A DNA stretch of 64,000 nucleotides, from the NCBI GenBank assembly GCA_016704465.1, contig JADJAD010000006.1:380021-444020 (forward strand). Direction: 5' to 3'. The notes under the pieces were generated by a model that was not told the origin of the DNA, made no database searches, and saw only the letters and a list, made by a program, of their open reading frames with translations. The position numbers and the translations under genes were made by a program. This document shows positions 30,596 through 48,936 of this stretch, in pieces. Positions within the stretch are counted from its first letter, which is position 1. The number at the start of each line of letters is the position of its first letter. This stretch comes from Gemmatimonadota bacterium (GTDB lineage Bacteria; Gemmatimonadota; Gemmatimonadetes; Gemmatimonadales; Gemmatimonadaceae).

Positions 30596-30603
30596 CCACC
30601 ACC

Positions 30604-32441
30604 GTGACCACTCACGACACTCATATGAAAGATTCCACGCAGGATGACACCACGCCCGCCCGTGTGATGGACTTGCTCGCGCGAATGAGCCTGGACCAGA
30701 AGTTGGGGCAGATGCTGCAGCCCGAGCGTTTGTCCGTCACTCCCGACGACGTACGCGCGCATCACTTCGGCTCCATCCTGAGTGGTGGCGGCTCCACGCC
30801 AGGGGAGAACCGTCCGACCGACTGGGTCGCCATGAACGACGCCTACTGGGCCGCGTCGATGAGTGACGAGGAAGGCCGCGTCCCCATCCCGTTGCTGTAC
30901 GGCGTCGATGCCATCCACGGCAACGCCAATGTGTTAGGCGCGACGGTCTTCCCGCACAACATCGGGCTGGGGGCGGCCAACGATCCCGACCTGCTGCAGC
31001 GCATCGCCGAGGCGACCGCGAAGGAGATCCTGTCCACCGGCGTCGAGTGGACCTTTGCCCCGACGCTGGCCGTGGCGCGCGACATCCGGTGGGGACGCAC
31101 GTACGAGTCGTACTCCGAGGACCCGGCCCTCGTCGCGAGTTATGCCGGGCGCTTCGTGCGCGGGCTGCAGGGCGATTTAGGGCGCGACGGCGTGGTGGCA
31201 TGCGCGAAGCACTGGGTCGGCGACGGCGGCACACGGGACGGCTTCGACCAGGGGGAGACCGACATTCCCGAGCGCGAACTCGTCGAGACCCACATCGCTC
31301 CGTATCTCCCGGCGCTCGCCGAGGGGGTGCTGACCGTCATGGCGTCGTTCAACAGCTGGAACGGGGTCAAGTGCCATGGGCATCGCTACTTGTTGACCGA
31401 CGTGCTCAAGGCGCAGCTCGGCTTTGCGGGCTTTGTCATCAGCGACTGGGACGGCGTGGACTACCTGGACGCCGACTACGCCACCGCCATCGCCAAGGCG
31501 GTCAACGCCGGCGTGGACATGCTGATGGTGTCGGTGGAATGGCGCGCCTGCCTGGAACACCTCAAGCGCCTCGTGAGCGACGGGACGATTCCGCTGACGC
31601 GCATCGACGACGCCGTGCGGCGCATTCTGCTGGTGAAGCATCGTTACGGCCTGTTCGAGCGCCCGCGTCCCGGCAAGCGATACTGGTCCAGGCACAACGT
31701 GCTCGGGGCGCCCGAGCATCGCGCGATTGCCCGCGAGGCCGTGCGGAAGTCGCTCGTGTTGCTCAAGAATGAAGGGGGCGTGTTGCCCATCGATAAGGGG
31801 GCGCGCATCCTGGTCGCCGGGCGCAACGCGGACAACCGGGGGCATCAGTGTGGCGGGTTCACCGTGGCGTGGCAGGGGGCGTCGGGGAACGACTTCATCC
31901 ACGGGGGGACATCGATCTGGGAGGGGATTCGGGAGGTGGCGCCGCAGGCGGAGCTCAGCGTCGATGGCAGCGCTGCGGAGGCAGGGTCGCATGATGTGGC
32001 GATCGTGGTGATCGGGGAGCGGCCGTATGCGGAGGGGATGGGGACCTGCGGGGGGCGGAGACGGCGGGGGCGGGGTCAGGGCCGGGGGGGAAGCACAATC
32101 GGTTGAAGCCGTATGGCGACACGCTGGAGCTGGCGGCGTTGCATCCTGAGGACTTGGCGACGATTCGGGGGATTCAGGAGAAGGGGATTCCGGTTGTGAC
32201 GGTGTTGGTGTCGGGGCGGCCGTTGGTTGTGAATCGGGAGTTGGAATGCTCGGCGGCGTTTGTGGCGGCGTGGTTGCCGGGGTCGGAGGGGGGTGGGGTT
32301 GCCGACGTCTTGTTTGGCGCGCAGGAGTTCCAGGGGAGGTTGTCGTTTGCGTGGCCGGGGACGGGTGATGCGACGACGGCTGTGGCTCGGGGGGAGGAGT
32401 CGCTGCTTTCGCGCGGGTACGGGCTGCGGCTGGCGGTGTAG
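30604..32441 (+). CDS. GH3 beta-glucosidase / exo-beta-glucanase, frame broken once in a G-run near 32034-32045
   Basis: Track ORFs 30604-32106 and 32103-32441. Motifs: LDQKLGQM, GVDAIHG, KHWVGDGG and GFVISDW. The first frame ends ...ERPYAEGMGTCGGRRRRG*. The other frame reads GDLRGAE...KPYGDTLELAA...VSGRPLVV...WLPGSEGG. The start could be GTG 30604 or ATG 30625. Confidence 0.75.
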
Positions 32442-32522: not shown

Positions 32523-33048
32523 TGTCCGTCGGAGGGGGCCAAATACGGCGCGGACTTCACGTGCTTTGGCGGGCGCTACGAGAGTGGTCCCTCTTGTAGC
32601 GGTCCTCGCCGGGATGGAGCAAATTCACCCTCGCAGCGACGGATTGCGTCCCACGTGCCGGTCCGTCGTTGTTCAACGTGCGGCGGGGGGCAGCACCTGG
32701 TCCGCCGGCCCCCTCCGATGGCTATTGTGATTATCACGTGTTGTGTCGCATGATAATCCGGGCGGTTCCCGGGGAGCCCGGTGTCGAAGTCGGTGACTCT
32801 CAAGGGTTTGGATCGCCCGACGCGAATGCGACTGTCCGGAATTCGCATGCGCGGCGCCGGGCTGATAATGTGGTGGTTGCAGGTGTTCGCTGGATTCTCA
32901 ACTTCCGGTGAAGTAGCGTTGAACTAAACCGCTGCGCGGTAGTTGTTGTTGAGGACGGTTCTCCGAGCGGGGCCGTCCTTTTGCGTGTAGGGGAGTGTCC
33001 GTAACGTCGCGGGTGCAGGTCCTGCTTCCCCCGCTGACGGAGGTTTCG

Positions 33049-33924
33049 ATGCAGACGCTCACCGACCGGATGAGCGAAGACATGCGGCTGCGTGGCTTCG
33101 CGCGCACGACCCAGCTGGCGTATCGCGGTGCCGTGGTCCGATTGGCCGCGCATTTCGCGCGATTGCCCGACACGTTGGACACGCTCACCGAAGCCGAGCT
33201 GCGCGCGTTCTTCGTGGAGCTGGTCACGACGCGCCACGTGTCGCGCAGCACGTTGATCGTGTATCGCACCGGCATTCGGTTTTTGTACGAAGTGACGTTG
33301 CAGCGCACCTGGCCGGTGTTCGATCTCGTGCGCCCGGCGAAGCGCCACGTCCTGCCCGTCGTGCTGTCGCCCGAGGAAGTGCGCGCGCTGCTGGCGTCCG
33401 TGCAGGATCTCCGCGCCCGCATGGCGCTGATCGCGATCTATTCGTGCGGGCTCCGCGTGTCCGAAGGCGTCAGTCTGCACACCCGGGACATCGATAGTGT
33501 CCGCATGCTCGTCCATGTGCGCGCCGGCAAAGGCGGGCGGGATCGCTATGTGCCGCTGCCGCAGCGCACGCTCGAGCTGTTGCGGGTGTACTGGCGCACC
33601 GCCGCGCCGCGCCCCCGGTTCGGGCTCCCGCGTGGCCCGTGGCTCTTCGCGAATCGCGCAGCCACCGGCCCGTTGCAGGCGACGAGCCTGCAGAAGACGT
33701 TTGCGGCCGTCGTGCGCCGCAGCGCGCTGACCAAACACGCGTCGATCCACACCCTGCGGCATTCGTATGCGACGCATCTGCTCGAGTGCGGCGTGCATCT
33801 CCGCGCGATTCAGGAGCTGTTGGGCCATAAGAGTCCGGCGACCACCGCCGTCTACACGCACATCACCCCGCAGGTGACGAGTGTGTTGCAGCGCACGCTG
33901 AATGCCCTGATGGCCCCGCTGTAG
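33049..33924 (+). CDS. Tyrosine site-specific recombinase (phage-integrase family; Xer-like, not IntI-like)
   Basis: Inner part of track ORF 32995-33924. ATG 33049 follows GGAGG. Motifs: CGLRVSE, GKGGRDRYVPLP, HTLRHSYATHLLECG and LLGHKSPATTAVYTH. The GKG-to-LRH spacing is about 79 aa, so the IntI-specific insertion is absent. Confidence 0.85.
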   Translation: MQTLTDRMSEDMRLRGFARTTQLAYRGAVVRLAAHFARLPDTLDTLTEAELRAFFVELVTTRHVSRSTLIVYRTGIRFLYEVTLQRTWPVFDLVRPAKRHVLPVVLSPEEVRALLASVQDLRARMALIAIYSCGLRVSEGVSLHTRDIDSVRMLVHVRAGKGGRDRYVPLPQRTLELLRVYWRTAAPRPRFGLPRGPWLFANRAATGPLQATSLQKTFAAVVRRSALTKHASIHTLRHSYATHLLECGVHLRAIQELLGHKSPATTAVYTHITPQVTSVLQRTLNALMAPL

Positions 33925-33943
33925 CCTCCCGGCGGGACCGGCC

Positions 33944-35074
33944 ATGACCGTGGCCGCGGTCGTGCGAGAGTTCGGGCCGGCGTACGTGGCGCGCTTCGGC
34001 GCCACGATGCCGCCGGGCCATCGGCGTGCCCTCGAGGACCTGGCGGCCTGTCGCACCGCCGCCATGGGCGGACACGTCACGCAGTGCGACGCGTGCGGCC
34101 ACGAGCACTTCGTGTATCACTCGTGCCGCAATCGGAGCTGCCCGTCGTGTCATGGCGCGAGCACGCGCGCGTGGCTCGCCGCGCGCGCGACGGAGCTGCT
34201 CCCCGTGCCGTACTTCCATGTGGTGTTCACGCTCCCCGCCGACTTGCGGGCGATCGTGCGCACCCATCAGCGCGTCCTGCTCCCGGTGCTGCTGCAAACG
34301 GCGGCCGCCTCGCTCCAGGCGCTCGCCGCCGATCCGCACCATCTCGGCGGCACCGTCGGCATGCTCGCCGTCTTGCACACGTGGACCCGCACGCTCGTCT
34401 ATCATCCGCATGTGCACTGCTTGGTGCCCGGCGGCGCCCTCGCGCCCGATGGGGTCACGTGGCGCCCTGCGCGTGGACAGTATCTGGTCCCGGTGCGCGC
34501 GCTGTCGGCTGGCTTTCGCGCGCGCTTCCTGTTGCGCCTGAAGCGGGTCCTCCCCGCGGTCGTCGTGCCGGCCACCGTGTGGACGACGCCCTGGGTCGTG
34601 TACGCGAAGCCCACGGTGCAGGGCGCGGCCCTCGTGCTTCGGTATCTCGCGCGGTATGTCCATCGCGCGGCCATCACCGACGCGCGCATCCTGCGCGTCG
34701 ACGCCGCGACCGTGACGTTTCGCTATCAGGACGCCCGAGCGCGGGCGTGGCGCACGATGACGCTCCCGGGCGAGGAGTTCCTGCGGCGCTTCCTGCAGCA
34801 CGTGTTGCCGCGCGGCTTGCATAAAGTCCGCTACTACGGCTGGTGGCGCCCGCAGGCGGCGGCCGTCCGCGTGCGGCTGCACCAGCAACTCACCGCCCCG
34901 GCGTCCCGTCCCCCTCCGGGTGATCCGCCGCCAGACGCCGCAGCCGCGCCCGCCCCCGGCTGCCCCCCCTGCCCACCCTGCCCACACTGTGGGGCCGGGC
35001 ACCTGATCCGAACGCGACGCCTCCTCCGTACGCACACGGTCGCGTCCGACCGGACGCGCGCGAGGCCGCCGTAG
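33944..35074 (+). CDS. IS91-family (Y2, HUH-type) transposase
   Basis: The N-terminal zinc-binding region is CDACGHEHFVYHSCRNRSCPSCH. The core motifs are LHTWTRTLVYHPHVHCLVPGGAL and YLARYVHRAAI. Confidence 0.85.
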   Translation: MTVAAVVREFGPAYVARFGATMPPGHRRALEDLAACRTAAMGGHVTQCDACGHEHFVYHSCRNRSCPSCHGASTRAWLAARATELLPVPYFHVVFTLPADLRAIVRTHQRVLLPVLLQTAAASLQALAADPHHLGGTVGMLAVLHTWTRTLVYHPHVHCLVPGGALAPDGVTWRPARGQYLVPVRALSAGFRARFLLRLKRVLPAVVVPATVWTTPWVVYAKPTVQGAALVLRYLARYVHRAAITDARILRVDAATVTFRYQDARARAWRTMTLPGEEFLRRFLQHVLPRGLHKVRYYGWWRPQAAAVRVRLHQQLTAPASRPPPGDPPPDAAAAPAPGCPPCPPCPHCGAGHLIRTRRLLRTHTVASDRTRARPP

Positions 35075-35418
35075 TGCGCGCGCCGTCGTCGCGTCGTCCC
35101 GTACCCCCACCACCCGCCCGTCCGGCGCGCGCCACCGCCCGTGGCGTCGACGGGTCGCGCGCATGCGTCGGCCAAACCCCCGTGCGCACCGGCGACGATG
35201 CGTCCCCCACGTCACAGCCACGACCGACACGCCGCGCGCGCCGGACGACACGGCGCGGTCGCCCCCGGTGGTCCAGGTAGCGCCGAGCGCGCAACGGGTG
35301 CAAACTCCATAGAGCCAGGTCGGCGGTTCAGTTCAACTGAGGTTTGGCGTCGGCTGCGCGACGCAAAACCTCTGATTCGTTCGGCCGCTCCATCACTCTC
35401 CGGGACTCGGGTTAAGGA

Positions 35419-36513
35419 ATGACATTTCGACCGCAAGAGCCTGCCGAGCCACTTCGCTACACGGTAGAAGGAGTCGTACTGGAAAGTGATGAGGGAGACG
35501 TGAGATTGGCGGGCACATTCACTCGCCCACAATCAGGCCTCAGGACAGCCGCCGTCCTACTCATTCCGGGATCGGGCGCTCATGACCGTGACGAGCAGGT
35601 GTGTGGACATCGCCCATTCCTCGTCCTCGCGGATCACCTGACCCGTTCCGGAATTGCCGTGCTGCGTTTGGATGATCGCGGTGTTGGCGAATCGACGGGC
35701 GACAAGGATCAGTGCACGCACAACGACCTACTGCGGGATGTGCGCTTGGCGCTGGAGTTTCTGGCCGCGCACGAGGATGTCGATGCAACCCGACTTGGCC
35801 TCATCGGCCATAGCGAGGGAGCCGTGTTGGCGGCGGCCGCTGCGACGCGGTACAAGCAGCTTGCGTTGATAGTGCTCATGGGGTGTCCGACACTTCCGGG
35901 CGAACAGACTATTCACGAACAGTCAGCGCTCATCTCCCGGCAGGCAGGAGCTACCGATGCACAAGTTGCACACGAGCGGCGAATGAATGAAGAGGTGTTT
36001 GCGGTTCTCAAGTGCCCAATCAGACACGAGTCTGCGCGCGAGCAGATTCTTTCGATTCTCGCATCCCACCTGAAATCTTGGCAGGACCAGCCGGTCGAGG
36101 ATGACGAAGTGGCAACGCACATTAACCGGATGGCTGATACCGTGCTGACGCCGGCTTTTCGGTCGTTCTTGAACTGCGAGCCTGCCCTCCATTTTCGGCG
36201 GGTTCGCTGCCCCGTACTGGCTCTCTTCGGCGAACTCGACATTCAGGTGCCACCGGCCTTGCATATGCAGGTGCTTAGGGAAGCATTGTCGGCAGCAGGC
36301 AATCCTGATGTCACAATCGAGGAGTTTCCTGGCTTGAACCATCTTTTTCAGACTGCAACAAGCGGCGCGATATCGGAATACGAGGTGATTGAAGAGACCA
36401 TCGCGCCTTCGGTGCTGGAGCGACTTTCCGATTGGATTCGTTCGCGCACTCATGACGGCGCTGCCGAACAACAGCATGCAGCGGACGTCGCTGCGCGCCG
36501 CCGCTCATGCTGA
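35419..36513 (+). CDS. Alpha/beta hydrolase (cassette ORF 1)
   Basis: The nucleophile elbow is LIGHSEGAVLAA. Also present are LLIPGSGAHDRDE and the late motif GLNHLF. GC is lower than the flanks. GTTAAGG precedes the ATG. Confidence 0.8.
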   Translation: MTFRPQEPAEPLRYTVEGVVLESDEGDVRLAGTFTRPQSGLRTAAVLLIPGSGAHDRDEQVCGHRPFLVLADHLTRSGIAVLRLDDRGVGESTGDKDQCTHNDLLRDVRLALEFLAAHEDVDATRLGLIGHSEGAVLAAAAATRYKQLALIVLMGCPTLPGEQTIHEQSALISRQAGATDAQVAHERRMNEEVFAVLKCPIRHESAREQILSILASHLKSWQDQPVEDDEVATHINRMADTVLTPAFRSFLNCEPALHFRRVRCPVLALFGELDIQVPPALHMQVLREALSAAGNPDVTIEEFPGLNHLFQTATSGAISEYEVIEETIAPSVLERLSDWIRSRTHDGAAEQQHAADVAARRRSC

Positions 36514-36522
36514 GCGTTCGGC
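36463..36522 (+). other. attC-like site (60 bp): GCCGAAC ... GTTCGGC
   Basis: The sequence is GCCGAACAACAGCATGCAGCGG-acgtcgctgcgcgccg-CCGCTCATGCTGAGCGTTCGGC. The outer 7-mers are perfectly complementary, the spacers are unpaired, and the inner arms have one bulged base. The site overlaps the last 17 codons of the hydrolase ORF. Confidence 0.6.
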
Positions 36523-36598
36523 AGACCGATGAGTAGCAGCGTATTTGCTGCGCACTACGCCACGCTCCAGCGCTTTTCCGGCTTTGATGGGACATTGA

Positions 36599-36904
36599 GT
36601 GCTGCATCACTTCCTCCTCCTTCGAGATCGCTTGGCCGGCAAGTTGTTCGGTCTCACGGTCCTTGCCGTTCTTGTCGTGGGGTGGGCGTGGGTCACCATG
36701 CGGGCGCGCTCCCTCCATGATCGGGAGGACTGGGTCTGGTGCCAAGGCGCCTACGCGCGCGCTAAGACGGCTGCTGAATCCACCGGGCTTGACGCCTCCT
36801 ACCCACCCAACCGCGGGCGTTCAACGGTACTGAGCTTGCGATGTCGCGATCGGCGACGCCAATTCGAGCAGCCGTCCGTCGCACCTACTCGGTCCAATCC
36901 ATAG
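36599..36904 (+). CDS. Small hypothetical membrane protein (cassette ORF 2)
   Basis: 101 aa with one TM-like segment (KLFGLTVLAVLVVGWAWV). It is bracketed by attC-like sites. No family was recognised. Confidence 0.35.
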   Translation: MLHHFLLLRDRLAGKLFGLTVLAVLVVGWAWVTMRARSLHDREDWVWCQGAYARAKTAAESTGLDASYPPNRGRSTVLSLRCRDRRRQFEQPSVAPTRSNP

Positions 36905-36914
36905 TGCGCGCGCT

Positions 36915-37012
36915 GCCGAACGGACGCTGCAACAGACAGCGGATCTATTGAATCGTGCGGCCTGCGGCCGCACTCTATTTGCCTCCGCTGCAGTTGAGCT
37001 CAGGCGTTAGGC
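36915..37012 (+). other. attC-like site (98 bp): GCCGAAC ... GTTAGGC
   Basis: The left arm GCCGAACGGACGCTGCAACAGACAGCGG pairs with the right arm CCGCTGCAGTTGAGCTCAGGCGTTAGGC. The central hairpin is GTGCGGCC-tgc-GGCCGCAC. The site starts 10 nt after the ORF stop. Confidence 0.55.
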
Positions 37013-37172
37013 CGCTAGTAAGGCGATCGAAGCGAGCAAGGAACCGCGCCGCCACCCGCGGGATGCGACGGAGGAATAGCGGCTTCCAACGACGGCAGCG
37101 TTTCCAGTCAGCGACGCGTACCTGACACATATGGCTTGCTTAGCACGCTGACACATCTACAGGGAGGGGAAG

Positions 37173-37937
37173 TTGACCAATGCACTCGAAGGTCGCACCG
37201 TCAGACTCAGGCCACCGGCAACGGCCCTGATCTTCACTCTGAGCCTCGCCACCTTGGCGTGTTCGAGCGATCCAACGCAACCTGTCACGTCCGCTCCCGA
37301 TCTCGGCAAGCCGTCGGTTGCGCTGGCCACCCTCGTGACCAGCTCCGGGATTGCCGATCAGTTCACGACGCTCAACACCTCCGTCTGGTGGCAATCGGCA
37401 TACCAGACTCCCACGAAGAACGGCTACTTTCGGACTTCGAACGCCACGGTCGCTGGTGGGAATCTGGAATTGTGGCTACCGAAGAACACGTATGACGGTG
37501 GGCAAGTGGAGACCAGGCTCTCGTACGGGTACGGGACATACGAGGCGATCATGAAGTGTTCGCCCGCCCGCTCAGCCCTTTGCACCGTGTACTCGTATGC
37601 CAGCAATGGGGATGAGATTGACATCGAGGTCTACTACAGCGGCGGCTGGAAGCTCGACTTCCTAGTATGGAAGCGCGGGGTGAAGAGCTGTCGACAAGCG
37701 ATTGCGGCGCCGTTCGATCCGAGCGCTGCCTATCACACCTACACATACGCCTTTTCGTCATCAGCAGTCCGATTCTACGTTGACGGCGTATTGAAGTCTT
37801 CGTGTGTGTCGACACTGAGTCTGCCAGCTCCGAGTATGAAGTTTCTCTTGTCCGCATGGCAGCCCAGCTGGCTGAACGTAAGCAAGCCTACAAGTACGAC
37901 CGCCACGCGCGTAACGGCCGCCTACTATCGTCCGTAG
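37173..37937 (+). CDS. GH16 / concanavalin-like glucanase-fold lipoprotein (cassette ORF 3)
   Basis: The TTG start follows GGGAGGGG. The lipobox is LSLATLAC. The GH16-type catalytic strand is SNGDEIDIEVYY (ExDxE). Confidence 0.7.
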   Translation: MTNALEGRTVRLRPPATALIFTLSLATLACSSDPTQPVTSAPDLGKPSVALATLVTSSGIADQFTTLNTSVWWQSAYQTPTKNGYFRTSNATVAGGNLELWLPKNTYDGGQVETRLSYGYGTYEAIMKCSPARSALCTVYSYASNGDEIDIEVYYSGGWKLDFLVWKRGVKSCRQAIAAPFDPSAAYHTYTYAFSSSAVRFYVDGVLKSSCVSTLSLPAPSMKFLLSAWQPSWLNVSKPTSTTATRVTAAYYRP

Positions 37938-37968
37938 TCCAATGAAAGATGCAAAGGGCGCGGGAGCG

Positions 37969-38217
37969 GCCTAACAAGCGCTTGAGGCTGGCGCCAGCGC
38001 GCTCCGCGCGCTGGCGCTCCGTTGAAATGCGGCGCAGCTTAAGCGTAGCGTTGAGGATGTAGGATAAGTCGACGGTCGAATCCGAACCGTTCGTTGTGGA
38101 AAATTCGACGGCCACAGTTGCCCCAGGATCGACGATCGCCTCATCGATGATGGTTTCGGTATGGAGGAAATCGGATCAAGCGGCGGGGCTCGGACTTATC
38201 TTACAGCCTCGTTAGGC
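37969..38217 (+). other. Long attC-like composite (249 bp): GCGGCCTAAC ... GTTAGGCCGC
   Basis: The outer 10-mers are perfectly complementary. Internally there is a 12-bp GC hairpin (37990-38020) and a second pair of arms, GAGGATGTAGGATAAGTC (about 38054) and GACTTATCTTACAGCCTC (about 38193). This may be two sites enclosing an ORF-less cassette. Confidence 0.4.
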
Positions 38218-38233
38218 CGCTTCCCAATTGCTG

Positions 38234-39106
38234 ATGACTCGTCGCAGCTCGACGCTCTGGCGCCGCTTTGAACTGGTCGTTGCCTCCTTGGAGCGAGCGC
38301 TGAGTCCCCAAGGCGCGGTCGTTACGTCTCCAGATCGCTTGCGCGATCGGGTCACCGGTCGACTCCGCGAGGTGGACGCGACCGTGCGCATTGTACGTCC
38401 CAACGGAACCGAGGAGCTGACAGCAATCGAATGTCGACGCCGGAAATGCCGACAGGATGACCCGTGGATCGAACAGCTCGCCTCGAAGCAGCACAAGATC
38501 GGAGCCGATCGCGTGATCGCCGTCTCCTCTAGGGGATTCTCCGAATCTGCCAAGCTGTCGGCCAATCACTTCGGCATCGCTCTCCGCACACGTGCTGAGC
38601 TTTCCGACCCCCGCGAAGTCGAAAAGTTGTTCGCTGGCTATTCGTTGGCGGCAACCATTACGGACTTCCAAGTGTTCTCGATCGATCTAGTCGATCGTGA
38701 CGGGGTTCAGTTGCCTCGACACGAACTGGAAGCGCTCTTTTCGAGTACCTCACTCGATACCAAGTTCCTTCTCGACGAGAACGGGCGTCCATGGGGCTCA
38801 GCTGATGGCGTCTGCCGCAGGATTGGCGATCACGACGTCCCAGTCGATGGCACGCCAGTAGAGAAGTGGTCGACAATCATATTTCCCGCACGCCTGGCCT
38901 TCGTGCGCCTTACAAGCGGACTTCGAGAGCTCGGCTCAATGAGACTTGGAGTCCGCTTCGCACGATACACGCGCTCTTTTACGAAGTCCTATTCCGCCTC
39001 GTATTCATCGCTCGACGCGAAGCTGACGACAGTTCTGTCTGGCGACGCGGTCCTCGATGGCGGGGAACGACTGGTCATGACGGTTCATCTCGCTGAGCCG
39101 TCGTAG
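38234..39106 (+). CDS. Hypothetical protein with N-terminal PD-(D/E)xK (restriction-endonuclease-like) signature (cassette ORF 4)
   Basis: Track ORF 38228-39106. ATG 38234 lies 16 nt after GTTAGGC. The N-terminal 120 aa resemble Mrr-type nuclease cores: FELVV...REVDATVRI...LTAIECRRRK...VIAVSSRGFSESA. The C-terminal roughly 170 aa are unassigned. Confidence 0.5.
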   Translation: MTRRSSTLWRRFELVVASLERALSPQGAVVTSPDRLRDRVTGRLREVDATVRIVRPNGTEELTAIECRRRKCRQDDPWIEQLASKQHKIGADRVIAVSSRGFSESAKLSANHFGIALRTRAELSDPREVEKLFAGYSLAATITDFQVFSIDLVDRDGVQLPRHELEALFSSTSLDTKFLLDENGRPWGSADGVCRRIGDHDVPVDGTPVEKWSTIIFPARLAFVRLTSGLRELGSMRLGVRFARYTRSFTKSYSASYSSLDAKLTTVLSGDAVLDGGERLVMTVHLAEPS

Positions 39107-39147
39107 CCCGCCGCGGCCTAACGGTAGTTGGAGCAGACGGCGGAACC

Positions 39148-40390
39148 TGCCTCACTTTGGTTGACACTTCCACCTAACTGAGATCGGAGGTGTCTGATGC
39201 CACGCGCGGGGCCGAGGAAGATTCAGAAGTACAGCGATGCGTTCAAGCTGACGGCGGTGCGCATGACCCAGCAGCCGGGGATGCAGGTGAAGACGGTGGC
39301 GGCGGGACTCGACATTCACCCCTTCATGCTGTCGCGCTGGCGCAAGGAAGTGCGCGACGGCGTCATTCGTGGGCGTCTCCCGCGCCGCACACCGGCCGGT
39401 CCGTCCCGGGATCTGGTGCAGCTGCAGGCTCGAGCGAGCGCGCACGCGCTGTTGCAGGAGGAGCACGACCTCCTAAAAAAAGCCATCCGGTTCTGTTCCG
39501 CTCGAAGGCCGAAACGTTCGCCTTCATCGACACCCAGTACGCCACGTACGGCGTGACGCGGCTCTGTCGTCGCTACGGGGTCACGCGCGCCGGGTATTAC
39601 GCCTGGCGCCGCCGCCCCCTCAGCGCCCATGCGCAACAGGACCGGACGTTGCTCACCGAGATTGCGCGCGTCTTCGCCCAGCACCACGGCCGCTACGGCA
39701 GTCCGCGCATCCATCAGGTGCTGACGACGCGTGGCTGGGCGGTAAGCCGCCGTCGCGTCGCCCGCCTAATGTACACCGCCGGGCTCCGCGCCAAGGCGGT
39801 GCGCGGCTATCGCGCGAAGGTCGGCACGCATCGCTTCTACGAACAGCATCCCAACCGCGTGCGCGCCCTCGCCGTCCAGCGTCGCAATCAGGTGTGGGTG
39901 GGCGACATCACCTACCTCACCGTCGCAGGCGAATGGCGCTACCTGGCCGTCGTGATGGATCGCTTCTCCCGCCGGATCCTCGCGTGGACCCTGCAGCGGC
40001 GCCGGGACGCACGGGTGACCACGGCCGTCCTACGGACCGCGGTGCGACACCGCCGCCCCCCGGCGGGCCTCACGTTTCACAGCGACCGCGGGTCCGAATA
40101 TCTGGCCGCCCCGTTTCGCGATCGCCTCCGTGCGCTCGGCATTCAGCAGAGCGCCAGCGTCAGCGGTCCGGGAGACAATGCGCACATGGAGTCCTTCTTC
40201 CACTCCTTCAAGGCCGAGGCGGTCCGCGGCGTCGCGTTCGCGACCGAGCGCGCGCTCCGGCAGGTGCTCCGGCACTACTTCCGCTACTACAACCACACCC
40301 GCTTGCATTCCGCGCTTGGCTTTCGGTCTCCAGTTGACTACGAGTCGGAGGCGGCGTAGTTCCCTACGAGCTGTCAACCAAAGTGGAGCA
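39148..40390 (+). mobile_element. IS3-family insertion sequence (about 1243 bp)
   Basis: The terminal inverted repeats TGCCTCACTTTGGTTGACA (39148-39166) and TGTCAACCAAAGTGGAGCA (40372-40390) match at 17 of 19 positions and have TG...CA ends. The element carries the orfA/orfB transposase with an A7G slippery site. No clean direct repeat was seen; the flanks are GGAACC and GGATCC. Confidence 0.85.
39197..40359 (+). CDS. IS3-family transposase OrfAB (programmed -1 frameshift at AAAAAAAG, 39475-39482)
   Basis: OrfA (track 39197-39556) has an HTH region, SDAFKLTAVRM...FMLSRWRKE. OrfB is in the -1 frame (track 39190-40359) with a DDE core: WVGDITYL, FHSDRGSEY and NAHMESFFHSFKAE. Confidence 0.85.
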
Positions 40391-40519
40391 GGATCCCAAG
40401 GGATCTATCGTGTGCGCGCGGCTCCCCCGCGCGCTCTATCAAGTTCCCTTGCAGGTGAACTAGGACGTTATGCCGTCAAGTGAGCGTAGGTGCTCGCATC
40501 AACAGAGGGAGTCGTCGCT

Positions 40520-41347
40520 ATGTCGAACTACTCCGAGGCAGTGAATGAGCACTATGGCCCGACTGACATCTCCGCGCGGATCATCGAGAGGCTAAAGGAC
40601 GCGGGGAAGGACATCGGCAATCTCTCCCGGGACGATCTTTCTCCATTCGATGAGTTTCACACTGGCGGGCGAGAATCGACGCGCGAACTCGCTCGGTTCG
40701 CAGCACTTCGGCCTGGCCGCAAGCTTCTCGATGTGGGGAGCGGAATTGGCGGCCCGGCGCGTACCCTAGCGGCAGAATTCGCGTGCGAAGTAACCGGGGT
40801 GGATCTCACCGAGGAGTATTGCCGAGCCGCCGAGATGCTCACTGACAAGCTCGGCCTAGGGAGCAAGGTTCAGTTCCGATGCGCCAATGCCCTCGACATG
40901 CCCTTTGCCGACGGGTCGTTCGATGTTGTGTGGTCGCAGAACACCTTGATGAACATTGAGGACAAGATGCGACTGTTCCAGCAAATTCGTCGCGTACTGC
41001 GGCCTGGAGGGATCTTCGCATTCGAGACGGTCCTGGCCGGAACAACCCCCGATATCCACTTTCCTGTGTTTTGGGCCGATTCTCCGGCGCTGAGCTTTCT
41101 GCCCAAGCCCTCAGAACTCAAGGGACAACTATCGTCCGCAGGTCTACGCGAAACCGCGTGGGAAGATACAACAGCGCGATCGATCGCGAATCAACGGAAG
41201 CGCAAAGGAGCCATCCAACGCGACGGACCGCCTGTGCTTGGCCTAGGAGTCATTGTGCCGAAGGACGTACTTGCGAAAATGGACAATGTCCTCCGCAATA
41301 GCGAAGAGTCTCGAACCATGACAGCGCAGGCTGTGTACACCGTATGA
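40520..41347 (+). CDS. Class I SAM-dependent methyltransferase (cassette ORF 5)
   Basis: Track ORF 40490-41347. ATG 40520 follows GAGGGAG. SAM motif I is LLDVGSGIGGPARTLA. Also present: FDVVWSQNTLMNI and LRPGGIFAF. Confidence 0.85.
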   Translation: MSNYSEAVNEHYGPTDISARIIERLKDAGKDIGNLSRDDLSPFDEFHTGGRESTRELARFAALRPGRKLLDVGSGIGGPARTLAAEFACEVTGVDLTEEYCRAAEMLTDKLGLGSKVQFRCANALDMPFADGSFDVVWSQNTLMNIEDKMRLFQQIRRVLRPGGIFAFETVLAGTTPDIHFPVFWADSPALSFLPKPSELKGQLSSAGLRETAWEDTTARSIANQRKRKGAIQRDGPPVLGLGVIVPKDVLAKMDNVLRNSEESRTMTAQAVYTV

Positions 41348-41389
41348 CGGTTGAGTGCAACGAGCAAATGCAACACGCATGAATGCCAC

Positions 41390-41450
41390 GCCTAACCACT
41401 CGGTTGAGCCGACTTGCCTTCGGCAAGCGGCTCACCTCGGACGGTTCGAC
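41390..41450 (+). other. attC-like site (61 bp): GCCTAAC ... GTTCGAC
   Basis: The sequence is GCCTAACCACTCGGTTGAGCCGACTTGCC-ttc-GGCAAGCGGCTCACCTCGGACGGTTCGAC, an imperfect palindrome with bulged bases that starts 42 nt after the ORF stop. Confidence 0.55.
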
Positions 41451-41627
41451 ATCAGCCTGACTTCGCCGCTATTTCCAGCGATGTCTCATGCTCGTCCCAC
41501 CATTTCGAATCGCCTCCCGAAGGAACTAGCACTCATCTACCGCTGATAGCCTGAGGTGCATGACGCGTGCAGTCGACTCCTCAGGTAATACTCTCTCTCC
41601 GAGATCGCCACTTGGGCGCAGACAACA

Positions 41628-41654
41628 ACGGGCGCCCCTCATCAGGGCGCCCGT
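41628..41654 (-). terminator. Hairpin ACGGGCGCCC-N7-GGGCGCCCGT downstream of the 41680-43512 gene
   Basis: A 10-bp GC stem lies 26 nt beyond the stop and is followed on the - strand by TTGTTGTC. It also marks the right edge of the lower-GC island. Confidence 0.5.
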
Positions 41655-41679
41655 CGTCATTCACGTCTCGATCCGCGAC

Positions 41680-43512
41680 CTACTTGGACGCCGCCGCGAG
41701 ACGCCGGATCTCGCCGGCCATGGTACGCACGCGCGCACCGTCCTTCGCTCCAGCGACATCCTTGTCCACGTCCCGCGCGAGTGCGTTCAACGCGGTTGCA
41801 CGGGCGACACCACTCTTCATCTCCGCGATGTCGAGAGCGGAGGAGATGGCTGCCGTTCGCGCCGATGCGAGCCCGCTGTTCCGCACCAGCTGATCGAGAT
41901 ACGACCGCACGACAACGAACGCAGGCGGCCACGTCATCTTCGGCTGGCTCTGCGGGTTGTAGGCATCGAATCGCACCAGCTTCGCCGCCGCAATCTCGTT
42001 CGCCGACAGCTGAGCGCTCGGCGTCAGCTCCAGGATGTCCATCCCGCGGTCGAGCTCCGACGAGAAGATCAGGCCGTTCCAGTAGTACGCCCCCCACGAA
42101 CCGCCGATGGCATTGCCTCCGCCTCGCACGTTGGGATCCACAGGTGGTTGCGGCACATCGGCGCCCCGTGGAGGAGTGATGGAGCCGCGGTCGAAATACC
42201 CGATCTCGAAGGCCGAGTCGGCGCTGGTGAAGTCCATGATGTTCACGCCACCCTGATACCACCCCTGCACGTACAGGTCGCGCCCGGGCACCGGGATGAT
42301 CCCGCCGTTGTGCGATACGCAGTTCTCCTCGGCAGCCTGCGCCGATGGGAGCTTGAAGTAGGCACGCTGCGTCTGCTTCTTCTTCGCGTCGAGCGTGATC
42401 ACCGTGTTGCCGCCCAGCTCGATCATGCTCGACGCCTGGCACATCGGGCCGGTGCCGCCGCCCCACTCATCGGTCTGGATCAGCTTCTTCCCATCGTTGC
42501 TGAATGCCGCCGTATGCCGGCCCTGGAAGTTGTTCGTATCGGTGAGCGCGTCGAGGCGAACCGGCTTCTCTGGGTTCGAGATGTCCACGACGATCGAGTG
42601 CGTGGAGCAGGACGCCGCGAGCAGGTTCATCTCGGGATACGCCGTCACGTCGTGGCAATTGCGCGGTCCGGTCGGCATCTCCGGATCCGGCGCCGTGCGG
42701 TTGGCCATGGCCGCCTGCCGGCGCGGGTCTGCCGGTGCGCAGAACTGCTTGCACTCCCCCTCACCATCGAGGCCGGTGAAGATGCGCGCCCCCGGAATCA
42801 CGTGGGCCTGCTCGGGGTGATCGAGCGGCACCTTGATGATGTCGAGCTGGAAGAGCGAGTTCGTGGGGTCGGAAGGGTCCGTGCCGTTGTTGCACCCCGC
42901 CAGTTCCGTCTCCGGCCGGGCGGCCTGCTGTCCCGAGACGTACAGGTATATGGTCCGTGGATCCTTCGGGCTGGGAACCAAGGTGTGCGTGTGGGAGCCT
43001 TTGCAGGTCTGCACGTTCTTCACGAGCTTCGGCGCCTTCGGATTGGACACGTCGAAGATGCGCACGCCGGCCATGTGGTCCTTCGGATCCTGCACGCCGC
43101 CGTCGCCGCAATCGTTGCGGTTGCCCGCCCCCTCGGCGGACAGGAAGAGCAGGTTGCCGACGATGGTCGGATCACCCTGCGAGGTGATGCACTTCGTCGC
43201 CGACGCCATCACGGGGTTGGCGGGGTCCGTAATGTCCCAGATCGTGAAGCCGGCGAAGTTGGCCTGGTAGACGTAGTGCGTGCCGAATGCCAAGTCCGAG
43301 TTGATGTACTTCAAGCCGGCCGCCGAGTCGAATGCCGCCGGCTTCTTCACGTGCGACACCTGCTTCATGTTGCTGATCGCAATGCCCGCGTCATACCGGC
43401 CGGGCTTGAGGTTGCTTCGGGGATCCTTGCTGGTCGGATACGTCTGTGCCAACACAATCGACGGCACGACGCTGGTCGCCAGCAGCAAGATGAAGCCACG
43501 CATCATACGCAT
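41680..43512 (-). CDS. Secreted beta-propeller-like hypothetical protein (possibly LVIVD-repeat/COG5276-like)
   Basis: 610 aa with signal peptide MRMMRGFILLLATSVVPSIVLA. It is cotranscribed with a DUF305 gene. The family assignment comes from memory of this gene pairing, not from a clear motif. Confidence 0.45.
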   Translation of the reverse strand: MRMMRGFILLLATSVVPSIVLAQTYPTSKDPRSNLKPGRYDAGIAISNMKQVSHVKKPAAFDSAAGLKYINSDLAFGTHYVYQANFAGFTIWDITDPANPVMASATKCITSQGDPTIVGNLLFLSAEGAGNRNDCGDGGVQDPKDHMAGVRIFDVSNPKAPKLVKNVQTCKGSHTHTLVPSPKDPRTIYLYVSGQQAARPETELAGCNNGTDPSDPTNSLFQLDIIKVPLDHPEQAHVIPGARIFTGLDGEGECKQFCAPADPRRQAAMANRTAPDPEMPTGPRNCHDVTAYPEMNLLAASCSTHSIVVDISNPEKPVRLDALTDTNNFQGRHTAAFSNDGKKLIQTDEWGGGTGPMCQASSMIELGGNTVITLDAKKKQTQRAYFKLPSAQAAEENCVSHNGGIIPVPGRDLYVQGWYQGGVNIMDFTSADSAFEIGYFDRGSITPPRGADVPQPPVDPNVRGGGNAIGGSWGAYYWNGLIFSSELDRGMDILELTPSAQLSANEIAAAKLVRFDAYNPQSQPKMTWPPAFVVVRSYLDQLVRNSGLASARTAAISSALDIAEMKSGVARATALNALARDVDKDVAGAKDGARVRTMAGEIRRLAAASK

Positions 43513-43553
43513 TCAGGGTTTCTCCGGAGGAGGCAACGTGGGGCGATTCACTC

Positions 43554-44162
43554 TCAAGGGAGCTGCGACAGCAGGCGCCGCATGATACCTATTTCGGCGG
43601 TCTGGGACGTGACGACATCGTTAGCGAAGACATTGGCATCCACTTCCTGACCGGCGCCCGGGGACTTGAAGAGGTCGTCCACCATTTTGAGCGCGCCGGC
43701 GTGGTGCTTGATCATTCCGACCAGAAAGAGCCGGTCAAAGGCAACGCCCTTCGCCTCGCTCATCGCCTTGAGCTCGTCGTCGGTGAGCATGCCGTCCATC
43801 CGCATGCCATGCCAGGAGGCCGTGTCCGGGGCGAACTGCCCATGCCGGCGGAGCCACTCCTGCATGATGACGATCTCAGGCACCTGCGACTGGTCGATCT
43901 TCCGCGAGAGCTTGAGCACCTGCGGATTGGCGCCGTTCGACTCCGCCATCCGCGACATCACGATGGCCTGGGCGTGGTGGGCGATCATCCCCTGCATGAA
44001 CTCGACATCCGCCTTCGTATAGAGCGCGCCCTTCGGGATGACGATCTCAGCGCCCATGCTGTGCTTGCTGTGATCCATGCCCGCCTGTGCGACGGCGCGT
44101 GACGAGGCGCCGGCAAGCAGGCAGGCAACGGTGAAAGCGAGTATCGGACGAGACGCAGTCAT
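43554..44162 (-). CDS. DUF305-family (ferritin-like four-helix) periplasmic protein
   Basis: A signal peptide is present. The characteristic motifs occur in duplicate: FMQGMIAHHAQAIVMS and FLVGMIKHHAGALKMV. Confidence 0.8.
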   Translation of the reverse strand: MTASRPILAFTVACLLAGASSRAVAQAGMDHSKHSMGAEIVIPKGALYTKADVEFMQGMIAHHAQAIVMSRMAESNGANPQVLKLSRKIDQSQVPEIVIMQEWLRRHGQFAPDTASWHGMRMDGMLTDDELKAMSEAKGVAFDRLFLVGMIKHHAGALKMVDDLFKSPGAGQEVDANVFANDVVTSQTAEIGIMRRLLSQLP

Positions 44163-44270
44163 GGCAAATGTGCTCCGGAGGCAACCGACTTATGAAGCAC
44201 GCCGGCGGAGAATGGCGCAAGGGAGGACCCGCGATCTCGCACGAATACGTGGCGAGCATATGGAGCGTTT

Positions 44271-44741
44271 ATGCCCATCCGTGGGGGCCGGTGCAGCCGG
44301 GCGCCGGCGCCGGTGTCCCTTCGTGCCTCGTGCGCGCGGAACGCATTGACGCACGCCCTCCGCGCCATCGGCTTGGGCAGGGATCTGTCCCAAGCTCAGG
44401 TGACATTCAACGGATTCGCGAAGCGGTTCGTGATCCGTGACGCCGAAGGCATGTACTTCGTGCCCGTCGCGGACGTCGACCGCGTGGAGGCGGACGGTGA
44501 CTACGTGGCGGTCATCGCCGGGGGGCGACACCACCTCGTGCGTCAAGCAATGCACGTCCTCGAATCGCGGCTCGACCCGGCGGAGTTCGTGCGCGTGCAC
44601 CGGTCGCACATGGTGCGAATCGAGCGGATCCGCCGGGTGGAACCGTGTGGCCACGGCGAGTACGAGCTGACGCGAGCGGACGGCATCCGGGTCACCTCGA
44701 GCAGGAGCTACCGGGAGCAGGTGCGGCGGCTGCTCCGCTGA
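44271..44741 (+). CDS. LytTR DNA-binding domain protein lacking a receiver domain
   Basis: The LytTR domain reads KRFVIRDAEGMYFVPVADVDRVEADGDYVAVIAGGRHHLVRQAMHVLESRLDPAEFVRVHRSHMVRIERI. Only about 50 aa precede it, and only 108 bp separate it from the divergent DUF305 gene. Confidence 0.7.
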   Translation: MPIRGGRCSRAPAPVSLRASCARNALTHALRAIGLGRDLSQAQVTFNGFAKRFVIRDAEGMYFVPVADVDRVEADGDYVAVIAGGRHHLVRQAMHVLESRLDPAEFVRVHRSHMVRIERIRRVEPCGHGEYELTRADGIRVTSSRSYREQVRRLLR

Positions 44742-44768
44742 CGCGCTGACACCAGTCGCGCCCCAGGG

Positions 44769-44790
44769 GTGGCGGAGACATCTCCGCCAC
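44769..44790 (+). terminator. Hairpin GTGGCGGAG-acat-CTCCGCCAC after the LytTR gene
   Basis: The perfect stem lies 28 nt after the stop. There is no T-tract. Confidence 0.35.
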
Positions 44791-45390
44791 GACCCGCACG
44801 TGCGCCCCGAGCTCCCCGGACGCCGCGGCGCCACCTCCTACGCCTTCCGCGCCTTTCGCGCCCCCAGCACCGTCGCCTCCTGCTGCGGCGCCAGCGCGAA
44901 CCGCTGCGCCCTCTGCCTCGCCTGGCGCGCTACATCCGCGTTACCGCCACCAACCCCGCGCTGTACGCCGTGGCCCTTGCGACACCGCGTCTTCCGGGCC
45001 GGGCAGACACACGTGCGCGCGATCGGATCGCAGGCACAGTGTTGTGCGCTCGCTCCGCTCGCACCAGTTCCTTCGGCTGCAACTGAGCGTCGCTGCTGAT
45101 ATGACTTGGTTGTTGTCAGGGGTTGGGGCACGATCGTGAGAACAGCGTACAGTTGGACCGACGTGGGCGGGAGGCAGCATGCCCTCGCTGCTCAATTACA
45201 CGTCGGGCGGTCGCGGGCTGATGTCCGAGATTCGTCGTGCGACCATCACGGTCCGTTAATACGCGCACCATAGGCCGACCGGTCGTGCGCACGGGGATGG
45301 GAGTGGTGGCAGTGATCTGGATAGCGAGCAGCGCGAGCGCCGTCGGCACCGACGACATGACGGGAGGGCGTGACGCTTCCCACGGCACGG

Positions 45391-46008
45391 CTAGAAATTG
45401 AAACCGAAGTGCAGGCCCGGCTGCCCGTAGAAGAATCGTGGCCATCTATCGTCCACCTGTTTGAACGCATCTGGCATTCGTGACTGATACGGACGATGCG
45501 TAATGGCGATGGACGGTTGGAAGAACACCCTGTCCCTGAAGAGTCTCACGTGGTACCCGATGGAATACGTATTAAAGACTTGAAAGCCCTTGTCGATCTT
45601 CACATCGCTATCGTCTACAAACGTTTGCCACGCAGGCATCACGTCTACCTGCCCGAACCAACGCTTCCGGAAGAATCGTTGATAGTTCAGTGACACGCCG
45701 TGCTCCCGAATATGGCCTGGGAACCCTTCTCCTTCCGCTTCGAACTTGCTGCCATAGGGAATGCCGATCGGCCAGCCATATCTCCATGTCTTGAACTCGA
45801 GCGACACGACATCGTGTCCTGTGATGCGATAGCCTACGTTCAGGTAGGTCATCTCAGGCGGATTATTGTCAGGGACAAGATTCGCCAGCATGAACAGGGT
45901 ACTGCCGACAAAGTACCGCTTGAAGGTGCTGTCTTGTGCGGCGTACTGTGCTCTCGCTTGGTGAGGGCTGGCCATCATCACGGCCAAGGCGAAGACGACA
46001 GTTCTCAT
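45391..46008 (-). CDS. Hypothetical outer-membrane beta-barrel protein (low-GC gene)
   Basis: This is the inner part of track ORF 45391-46959. ATG 46008 gives the signal peptide MRTVVFALAVMMASPHQARA. The protein has alternating-hydrophobic strands and a C-terminal ...GLHFGFNF. GC is clearly lower than in neighbouring genes. Confidence 0.5.
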   Translation of the reverse strand: MRTVVFALAVMMASPHQARAQYAAQDSTFKRYFVGSTLFMLANLVPDNNPPEMTYLNVGYRITGHDVVSLEFKTWRYGWPIGIPYGSKFEAEGEGFPGHIREHGVSLNYQRFFRKRWFGQVDVMPAWQTFVDDSDVKIDKGFQVFNTYSIGYHVRLFRDRVFFQPSIAITHRPYQSRMPDAFKQVDDRWPRFFYGQPGLHFGFNF

Positions 46009-46080
46009 GTGTATACTCTTGCTTACTCGGTTTGAGAGCATGGTGACCGCGGCGCAGGGCGCTGCCACGTGTCGTTGGCA

Positions 46081-46917
46081 TACCAGCACACTCCCGCATT
46101 TCCGGCCTGTCTCCACGCGCGCGTGTGCTGCGGCGATGTCGTCGAGCGAGAAGCGTGAGTCGATCAGCGGTGTGAATCGTCCGTCGGTCGCCATGGCGAC
46201 GAGCGTGCGCAAGTCCTCCACGCGCATGCGGGCGTACGGTGCGTTACCCACGGTGTCGCCGATGACAGGATAGCGAATGCCTTCGGACGCGAAATCGGTG
46301 CGCGTGTAGTCGACCACCTGTGTGGCGCCGAGTTGTTGGACCAGCTGGCGATTGGCCCCACTGCAGACCGCCGTGACATCCGCGACGGCGGCGACGGCGA
46401 GCTGCACCATCGCGGACCCCACCGTTCCCGAGGCGCCGTTGATGAGCACGCGCTCGCCGGCCTCGAGCGCGCCGCGTCGGAAGCAGTCGAGCGCGGTGGT
46501 ACCGCCAAAGGCGAGTGCTGCCGCCGAGGTGTAGGAGAGCGCCGCTGGTTTGTGCGCGATCGCGGCGTTCGCGGTCATGCAGCAATACTCCGCGTGGGCG
46601 CCAAGCTTCAGGCCTGGATATGCCACCACCGCATCGCCACAGGCAAAGTTGCGCACCGACGCACCAACGGCGAACACAGCACCGGAGCATTCGCTTCCCA
46701 GCACGGCCTGTCGCGGCGCGGTCACGCCGAATGCGAGTCTCCCTGCGAGGCCAACGCCGTGCGGCATGCTGAGGCTGCGCATTCTCCAGTCGGCGGACGA
46801 CACGGTGGATGCGCACACGCGAATGAGCACCTCGGCGGGACCGGGCTCTGGCCACCGGATCTGTTCAATCTCGACCACGTGCGGCGGTCCGTAGCGTCGG
46901 ACCACCCCTGCTTTCAT
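46081..46917 (-). CDS. Zinc-type (MDR) NADPH:quinone oxidoreductase-like protein; no stop codon of its own
   Basis: The start is MKAGVVRRYGPPHVVEIEQIRWPEPGPAEVLIRV (ATG 46917). The Rossmann motif is VLINGASGTVGSAMVQLA. The conserved end is ...AHARVETGRKCGSVLV. The frame then runs on without a stop into the next gene, to 45391. Confidence 0.6.
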
Positions 46918-46931
46918 GTGCGATGACATGG

Positions 46932-47776: not shown

Positions 47777-47792
47777 ACCTCTAGTGTACCGC

Positions 47793-48455: not shown

Positions 48456-48764
48456 TGGACCGTGTTCCATCCGCCCCGCGGCAGCGGGTGAGCGGGGCTG
48501 CGGCCCGTCCTGATCCTCAGTCACGACGTCGTCAACGCGCGCCCCGGGACGGCCATCGCCTTCGCCCGCACCAGCCAACCGCAGCAGGCGGGGTTTTCCC
48601 TCAGGCTGGAGTCGGCCGGCGTGAACCTCCCGAAGCGCTCGTCGGTAAAGAGCAGCCAGATTCGCACGATCGCTGCGGAACGAATCGGCCGGCGCATCGC
48701 GCGTGCCTCACACGAGGAACTGGCGCAAGTGCCCGAAGGGCTCAAAGAGATTCGTGGCGCCTAA
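48456..48764 (+). pseudogene. MazF/PemK-family toxin remnant (no start codon, in-frame TGA at 48489)
   Basis: The frame reads WTVFHPPRGSG*AGLRPVLILSHDVVNARPGTAIAFARTSQPQQAGFSLRLESAGVNLPKRSSVKSSQIRTIAAERIGRRI. It begins 3 codons after the TetR stop, and there is no antitoxin gene upstream. Confidence 0.5.
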
Positions 48765-48936
48765 CGGGCGCTGGGGCAGACGCGGGCACGACTGACTCGT
48801 GCGCCTTCGGGGCGCACTCGATATGACGCCCGCGCTGCTCAACGTGGACGTCTACCCCGCTTCCGACTGGGGTTGCCACCGCAGGTCGATGTCCGGCATG
48901 GCCGACTAGCAGTTCACCCCCGACTTCGAACCGGAA

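Follow-up and report, generated by a model that had tools for sequence, protein, structure and literature searches.

In this study, we describe a 64-kb stretch of DNA (contig JADJAD010000006.1) from a Gemmatimonadota metagenome-assembled genome (MAG) recovered from activated sludge, hereafter the window (the whole stretch of 64,000 nucleotides), which contains at positions 35379–41450 an integron-style array of five gene cassettes, each pairing an open reading frame (ORF) on the + strand with an attC recombination site. We interpret this locus as what is left of a chromosomal array of integron cassettes, cut off by the insertion of an IS91-family element, and put the probability of this interpretation at about 0.93. 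Because no integron integrase (IntI) is encoded in the window, the locus is a CALIN—clustered attC sites lacking an integron integrase—by the definition of Cury et al. (2016; PMC4889954): five attC sites fall within 6 kb, and the intI gene that stands beside the array in a complete integron was absent from all 64 kb. Judged from sequence, the attC sites, the cassette boundaries, the mobility of cassettes between arrays, the lack of IntI in the window and the insertions of mobile elements are all demonstrated in the sections that follow, and the history that connects them is given in conditional terms.

attC sites and their structure

All five sites are bounded by AAC...GTT cores (NNNNAAC at the start, GTTNNNN at the end), and every heptamer listed in a first-pass annotation made from the letters alone was found at the position given there. 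Three R'' boxes and two R' boxes match the core consensus RYYYAAC/GTTRRRY exactly, and the other forms—GCCGAAC, GTTCGGC, GTTATGC at site 4 and GTTCGAC at site 5—depart from it at one position. Site lengths are 60, 98, 88 (the body of site 3), approximately 103 (site 4 minus its insertion sequence, IS) and 61 nt, the range applied in the core-site test being 57–141 nt between outer cores. Pfam bore out the five + strand ORFs and the families assigned to them, with the 101-aa ORF remaining without a family (Table 1). The palindromes had been described as overlapping each ORF or following it within 9–42 nt; measured from the stop codons of cassettes 1–5, the spacing is an overlap, 10, 31, 9 and 42 nt.

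A plain heptamer search was rejected as a site finder, as it returned about 110 matches per strand in this GC-rich DNA and was uninformative; a heuristic attC finder overlooked many sites and a covariance model was used in its place. This model was built from 16 inter-gene palindromes, none of them from the window, on three contigs matching the hydrolase or GH16 proteins of cassettes 1 and 3. The 16 palindromes align as a single family of 93–100 nt, for which RNAalifold gave 20 base pairs, with compensatory double changes in 14 of them. Run across the whole window with filters off, the model recovered all five sites on the + strand: site 2 with E = 4e-26, site 4 by its right half with 2e-9, site 3 (37969–38056) with 4e-6, site 1 with 3e-4 and site 5 with 0.027. 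A single minus-strand match at E ≤ 0.01 proved to be the palindromic echo of site 2, and no match with E < 0.1 was found in the window beyond 36.4–48.9 kb. Rfam 15, searched at gathering thresholds, gave no match in the window.

Bottom-strand folding, proposed in the first-pass annotation as a check, gave z-scores of −3.5 to −5.1 for sites 1, 2, 3 and 5 (site 1, −5.1; site 5, −4.8), with 0 of 200 shuffles folding as well. On the R''/L'' arm of the site 1 fold, one G and one T are bulged out; by position they may be the extrahelical bases that mark the recombinogenic strand, and the family consensus likewise has three unpaired columns (16, 21 and 23) on the R''/L'' arm vs one on the opposite arm.

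Imperfect, GC-rich palindromes lying 3' of genes, one of which holds a terminator-like hairpin with a T-rich tail (36955–36973), might instead represent repetitive extragenic palindromic (REP)-like or terminator-like repeats of the host, scattered among ordinary chromosomal genes. The confinement of the covariance matches to one strand (bar the site 2 echo) and to a single 12.5-kb region (36.4–48.9 kb) of the 64-kb window excludes dispersed repeats of either kind. Moreover, gene and site move together between arrays, with breaks at G|TT, the cassettes are foreign to the host in composition and relatives have other genes at the same place. We therefore regard the repeat explanation as refuted. 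Among the observations that the first-pass annotation had named as fatal to its own proposal were palindromes spread genome-wide after genes in either orientation and synteny of the five ORFs in related genomes; within the 64-kb window the matches are not spread in this way, and a close relative (L132, below) has entirely different cassettes at this place.

Cassettes as mobile units

The exact hydrolase protein was found on 12 other contigs and the exact GH16 protein on 19, mostly from wastewater metagenomes, in arrays of small same-strand genes and beside differing neighbours; searches for identical copies of the methyltransferase and of the Mrr-like protein returned no record. Comparison of the related loci (given here as L numbers) places the breaks precisely. 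In L001, L004 and L006, homology with the window is limited to 35378–37016, that is, to the hydrolase cassette and the 101-aa cassette (whose ORF is also called in L001), and upstream of the hydrolase cassette there is a different cassette, encoding 220 aa, with an intact attC ending ...CAGCTTCGGCGTTCGGCCGC. At junction 37006, the window reads ...CAGGCG|TTAGGCCGCTAG (TTAGGCC after the G) and runs on into the GH16 cassette; at the same junction L001 reads ...CAGGCG|TAACACCGC (TAACACC after the G) and runs on into a 162-aa cassette. L008–L010 arrive at the same TTAGGCCGCTAG and GH16 gene from a different, 177-aa cassette, with L008 joining the window from the TT onwards. The hydrolase, 101-aa and GH16 cassettes thus have differing neighbours in L001, L004, L006 and L008–L010, and the ORF-plus-site units that the first-pass annotation had suggested seeking in other genomes do occur elsewhere for these three cassettes.

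In integron recombination the crossover falls at G|TT, and the TTNNNN at the head of an inserted cassette derives from the attC of that cassette. In each R' core, the four variable bases should therefore pair with the R'' box of the next attC in the array and not with that of the same site. Among 73 consecutive attC pairs from 13 arrays, pairing with the next R'' was perfect in 51 (mean 3.47 of 4 bases), against 9 of 72 (mean 2.39) for the R'' of the same attC; none of 10,000 permutations reached the observed total. Four of the five cassettes in the window have the perfect signature. We regard this R'/R'' pairing as decisive for integron-type cassettes; it, with the separately built covariance model, the compensatory stem changes and the identical cassettes in different arrays, upholds the attC-and-cassette reading of the first-pass annotation.

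Composition also sets the array apart from its host, to which it is foreign: GC content is 0.59–0.60 vs 0.66–0.70 in the windows around it, confirming the drop already noted by eye, and GC content at third codon positions (GC3) is 0.61–0.73 in the five cassette ORFs vs 0.82–0.90 in host genes of the window. No sigma-70-like promoter site was found on the + strand within 35000–41500, in keeping with cassettes previously described as promoterless. Neither an attI site nor a Pc promoter was found upstream of cassette 1, where the oriIS end of the IS91-family element lies instead.

Truncation by an IS91-family element

The element to the left of cassette 1 encodes an HUH/Y2 transposase that scores 392 bits on NCBIfam NF033538 (cutoff 125). 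Elements of the IS91 family have subterminal palindromes and a tetranucleotide target (GTTC/CTTG) next to the oriIS end, downstream of tnpA, and create no target duplication (PMC13181058). In agreement with this, there is no target duplication around the element when it is compared with the uninterrupted junction in L001, it has a subterminal palindrome (a hairpin at ~35340–35373) and its right end, ...CTCTGATTC|GTTC, abuts GTTC; the terIS-side end is GTTGAACTAAACCGC. The GTTC, downstream of tnpA, is part of the R' core GTTCGGC of an attC, and the presence of an IS91-family element in an attC site follows from the preference of this family for GTTC targets. The first-pass annotation had rightly placed GTTCGGCCGC at 35379, ahead of the first ORF; this sequence is not an attI site, being the R' core of an upstream attC split by the IS91-family element.

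L007 (GCA_963851945.1), which is 99.68% identical to the window over 32916–47936 and unrelated leftward, preserves the arrangement expected of a simple insertion: left of the element stands an intact attC ending ...CAGCTTTGGC (covariance E = 6e-21), with six further attC sites upstream, and to the right of it GTTCGGCCGC and the start of the hydrolase cassette. The L007 array itself starts without intI, beside an amidohydrolase gene and a TetR gene. In the window, the element is preceded by a complete GH3 gene, a terminator-like hairpin and ~400 bp of other DNA. Because this is not array DNA, the five cassettes are cut off from any upstream integrase and cassette promoter. The different left flank most likely arose when two copies of the IS recombined, or through a deletion next to the IS. 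The idea that the GH3 gene had been truncated by the IS was rejected, as the gene has a normal stop followed by the hairpin. This GH3 beta-glucosidase appears as two overlapping frames (30592–32106 and 31995–32441) joined in a G-rich stretch at ~32040–32100, which probably reflects a frameshift due either to a sequencing error or to the gene being a pseudogene.

It is unlikely that the GH3|IS91 junction (~32917) was created during assembly at an IS present in several copies, with the real array extending leftward as in L007. Such an artefact would fit the 99.7% identity of the two sequences right of 32916, their lack of relationship to the left and the position of the break exactly at the IS end, repeated IS copies being classic points of mis-joining; the same picture would arise from a real IS-mediated deletion or recombination. 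Were the junction an artefact, the history of the array would change and its identity would not.

A tblastn search of the 64 kb with IntI1 found a single tyrosine recombinase (32995–33924), which lies within the IS91-family element. Were it the array's own integrase, the locus would be a complete, if atypical, integron: its best NCBIfam match is to the integron-integrase subfamily (3e-49) and, like the intI genes of L129, L130 and L037, it precedes the cassettes and is co-oriented with them. On TIGR02249 (integron integrase), however, it reaches just 168 bits where the cutoff is 265, it does equally well on the XerC/XerD models, and in alignment it is without 33 residues of the IntI-specific domain (LPxAFxRKxPxAxxxWxWxWVFPA...) that are present in IntI1 and in three Gemmatimonadaceae IntIs. 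In L007 the element around it interrupts an attC as a simple insertion, and the pair formed by this recombinase gene and the IS91 transposase gene recurs in the same order on Herpetosiphon and Aromatoleum (ISAzo26) plasmids, settings in other phyla that are away from integrons. The recombinase, of a type that usually accompanies IS91-like transposases, belongs to the IS91-family element and is not IntI; a complete atypical integron is accordingly very improbable and close to refuted, and the earlier description of the locus as CALIN-like, with no IntI in the window, stands.

Interrupted attC sites

Site 3 had been listed as a 249-bp attC. An attC is indeed present, and it is composite: an 88-nt attC body (37969–38056) ending in GTTGAGG is followed by a 157-nt segment and then by AGGC. 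The 157-nt segment (38053–38209), lying in the R' core, has 19-nt terminal inverted repeats and GTT on both sides, and no second copy of it was found in the window or in the 134 loci compared with it. At a guess, it may be a small transposable element of the kind known as a miniature inverted-repeat transposable element (MITE).

An IS3-family element interrupts site 4, as the first-pass annotation had recognised. The right end of this element, GTGGAGCAGGATCC, resembles an attC arm. Members of the IS3 family have a DDE (rve) transposase in two frames, terminal inverted repeats and a target duplication of 3–4 bp; no consistent target duplication was found when the copies in the window, L050, L044 and L008 were compared. 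The missing duplication might mean that attC 4 is a chimera, but when it is aligned with L050 and L008 a duplication-free parse also fits all copies. Relatives of the element in L050 (80% identical) and L044 (72%) occupy the same attC position as the window copy, and the related IS3-family elements (99%, 80% and 72% identical) all lie on the L'' arm directly after ...GCAGAC, each time in another cassette. The attC interrupted in L050 can be shown to be that of its own cassette; L008 has the left flank and the IS3-family element in common with the window, followed by 13 other cassettes.

Three insertions at the same attC position suggest that a subgroup of IS3-family elements in the Gemmatimonadaceae might specifically target integron attC sites, a proposal that we put forward tentatively and consider rather less probable than its opposite. 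This targeting is the only part of the present observations that might be new. If it is real, this subgroup and the IS91-family elements, which land on the GTTC of R' cores, would act as lineage-specific breakers, shufflers and orphaners of cassette arrays, and IS insertion as a route to CALIN formation would here be seen in action.

Relatives and complete integrons

The LVIVD protein encoded beside the array is identical to MBK6487181.1, a protein of a MAG labelled 'Gemmatimonadetes bacterium' (locus tags IPF98_). At the corresponding place in L132, which shares the 90%-identity cluster of this LVIVD protein and whose DNA is 89% identical, the cassettes are wholly different, and homology with the window begins at 41439, at the R' core of site 5.

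Relatives were sought with a 24-nt attC motif in a set of genomes holding one per species, a procedure that yields many single chance hits. Loci with multiple hits all came from Gemmatimonadaceae or Gemmatimonadota MAGs, with one exception, L086 (JADZDL010000270.1), a 3-kb contig binned as Planctomycetota that holds five attC sites of the Gemmatimonadaceae family and, at 99.5% identity, the left end of the window's own IS91-family element; this contig is probably mis-binned. In the multi-hit loci of Gemmatimonadaceae and Gemmatimonadota MAGs the covariance model found as many as ten or eleven sites within 8 kb, always on one strand. The arrays are long, with at least ten attC sites in L063 and L089, and toxin–antitoxin cassettes (BrnT/A, ParE, PemK) occur among their cargo. 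The attC family (93–100 nt, ~72% mean column identity) is common to many Gemmatimonadaceae MAGs, and arrays of it were found in about a dozen Gemmatimonadota MAGs.

Four of the related loci—L037 (STL-GEM2), L129 (GCA_045804265.1), L130 and L131—have a true IntI gene directly upstream of the array and on the same strand. The IntIs of L037, L129 and L130 are 48–57% identical to IntI1 and gapless across the IntI-specific domain; that of L131 was identified from a 165-aa protein homologous to the IntI fragment of L037, with 58% identity across 98% of this query. These intI genes are called in fragments (117+201 aa, 223 aa and 165 aa), which points to either decay or frameshift errors in long-read assemblies.

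Integrons have already been reported for Gemmatimonadota at the level of the phylum (PMC8618304), and a full-text literature search found no paper joining Gemmatimonadetes, integron and attC. The statement of the first-pass annotation that integrons are poorly described in this lineage is therefore right in that they are hardly described, and overrates the novelty of finding one.

Downstream remnants and flanking genes

Besides the five sites listed by the first-pass annotation, all of which were found, there are two more attC-like sequences further downstream (Table 1), the nearer of them (45140–45208) decayed, with a 3' half like the family consensus, and weak as evidence. The solitary attC belongs to a PemK–attC–DUF2283 remnant cassette region located 7 kb downstream of the array; a small ORF after this attC overlaps the start of the DUF2283 gene, and the two look like a toxin–antitoxin pair. 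Adjoining the decayed site is a 205-aa ORF on the minus strand (45394–46011) with a signal-peptide-like start and no Pfam family; its GC content is far below that of its surroundings (0.58 in the 45–46 kb window).

The intervening block (41451 to ~45100), with LVIVD, DUF305 and LytTR genes on the minus strand, resembles the host in GC3. The LVIVD–DUF305(–LytTR) block is bracketed by attC sites in both the window (41451–45208) and L132 (8762–12149), and the start of the L132 block, G|TTGGGC, agrees in 4/4 variable bases with the R'' of the far-end attC, as would be expected of a two-gene cassette of 3.3 kb.

Table 1: Positions of the array, its interrupting elements and related features. Positions refer to the window unless another locus is named.
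Feature	Position	Strand	Details
IS91-family element	32918..35378	+	Left junction set by comparison with L007; truncates array
Tyrosine recombinase gene	32995/33049-33924	+	Within IS91-family element
Y2/HUH transposase gene	33944-35074	+	Pfam Y2_Tnp and Zn_Tnp_IS91
R' core GTTCGGC of IS91-split attC	35379..35385	+	Cassette 1 begins at 35380
Cassette 1	35380..36516	+	Alpha/beta hydrolase ORF 35419-36513 (Pfam Hydrolase_4/Abhydrolase); 60-nt attC 36463-36522
Cassette 2	36517..37006	+	101-aa ORF 36599-36904 (no Pfam family); 98-nt attC 36915-37012
Cassette 3	37007..38211	+	GH16 lipoprotein-like ORF 37173-37937 (Pfam Glyco_hydro_16); composite attC 37969-38217
Cassette 4	38212..40467	+	PD-(D/E)xK ORF 38234-39106 (Pfam Mrr_cat); IS3-interrupted attC 39116-40473
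IS3-family IS	39142..40396	+	Inside attC 4; 25-nt inverted repeats; ends uncertain by ~3 nt; Pfam rve, HTH_21, rve_2/3
Cassette 5	40468..41444	+	S-adenosylmethionine (SAM)-dependent methyltransferase ORF 40520-41347 (Pfam Methyltransf_11, 5e-26); 61-nt attC 41390-41450
Decayed attC-like remnant	45140..45208	+	Covariance E = 0.15
PemK/MazF toxin ORF, 5'-truncated	48491-48763		Pfam PemK_toxin 1.7e-16; ends in attC 48759-48856
Solitary attC, same family	48759..48856	+	Covariance E = 3e-16; R' degenerate, GTCTACC
DUF2283 gene	49137-49355		Pfam DUF2283 1.2e-15; 3' of attC 48759-48856
IS3-family copy, L050	2146-3495
IS3-family copy, L044	~4594 downward	minus
IS3-family copy, L008	2913-4210
intI, L037	1-585
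intI, L129	6234-7195
intI, L130	1193-2020
intI, L131	10001-10498

Discussion

The following history would account for these observations. An IntI recombinase, formerly encoded upstream or still encoded elsewhere in the genome, would once have inserted each promoterless gene with its attC as a circle, cutting at G|TT. An IS91-family element then landed on GTTC in the R' core of one attC, and an IS91-linked rearrangement may have removed the upstream part of the array. Later, an IS3-family element split attC 4. The cassettes are now presumably silent for the most part, unless read through from the IS.

Several points weigh against this interpretation. The R'' box GCCGAAC and the R' box GTTCGGC are off the consensus RYYYAAC/GTTRRRY by one position, and sites 1 and 5, at 60–61 nt, have only modest covariance scores (3e-4 and 0.027). 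The covariance model was derived from the same attC family and so measures membership of that family, not generic attC-ness. The left GH3|IS91 junction may have been joined wrongly in assembly, the IS being repeated. Both the tblastn search and the alignment depend on the accuracy of the IntI1 sequence entered for them; the NCBIfam result is independent of it. Finally, no IntI of the window's genome was found, and recombination of this array is known from its sequence only.

A related possibility is that the array forms the distal end of a sedentary chromosomal integron that is otherwise complete, with intI elsewhere in the genome and cassettes exchanged in trans after an IS91-linked move. We rate this as a serious contender, a little short of an even chance. 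A second, partial hydrolase cassette, 96% identical, lies on another contig (502,676 bp) of the window's MAG, which thus has at least one more cassette locus; cassette content that is wholly different between close relatives implies recent IntI activity in the lineage; and about half of CALINs occur in genomes that encode IntI (PMC4889954). Against this, no intI was found for the window's MAG, the sister array in L007 also begins without one and a look-up of the second hydrolase copy (P0136) returned no record. A further sequence, P0064, was considered as a clue to intI in this MAG and dropped, as it comes from another assembly.

As a severed remnant of a chromosomal array, the locus is of a kind already well known, and it leaves the understanding of how integrons work unchanged. 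Its value lies in providing a clear, well-bounded example of integron cassettes for Gemmatimonadota, a phylum whose integrons have been listed and hardly described; in defining a lineage-specific attC family with which further arrays can be sought; and in a direct view of an IS severing an array from its integrase, which is one proposed origin of CALINs.

Compared with known systems, the array resembles the CALINs described previously in having no intI nearby, in its typical size of five sites and in the implication of IS elements in separation from the integrase (PMC4889954). Nothing essential differs, and the truncating event is here directly visible as an IS91-family element in the R' core of an attC. 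The Vibrio cholerae repeat (VCR) arrays of Vibrio and the integrons of Xanthomonas likewise have one lineage-specific attC family, long arrays, toxin–antitoxin cassettes and strain-variable content; here, in contrast, the host belongs to Gemmatimonadota and the window lacks intI. A further difference is that the intI genes of L129, L130, L037 and L131 are co-oriented with their cassettes and not divergent from them, an orientation also described for the 'inverted' integrons of the Treponema type. Finally, the IS1111-attC group (IS110 family) and the group IIC-attC introns offer a parallel for mobile elements that are found repeatedly in attC sites at a fixed position, from which the present elements differ in family, one being a DDE (rve) element of the IS3 type and the other an HUH element of the IS91 type.

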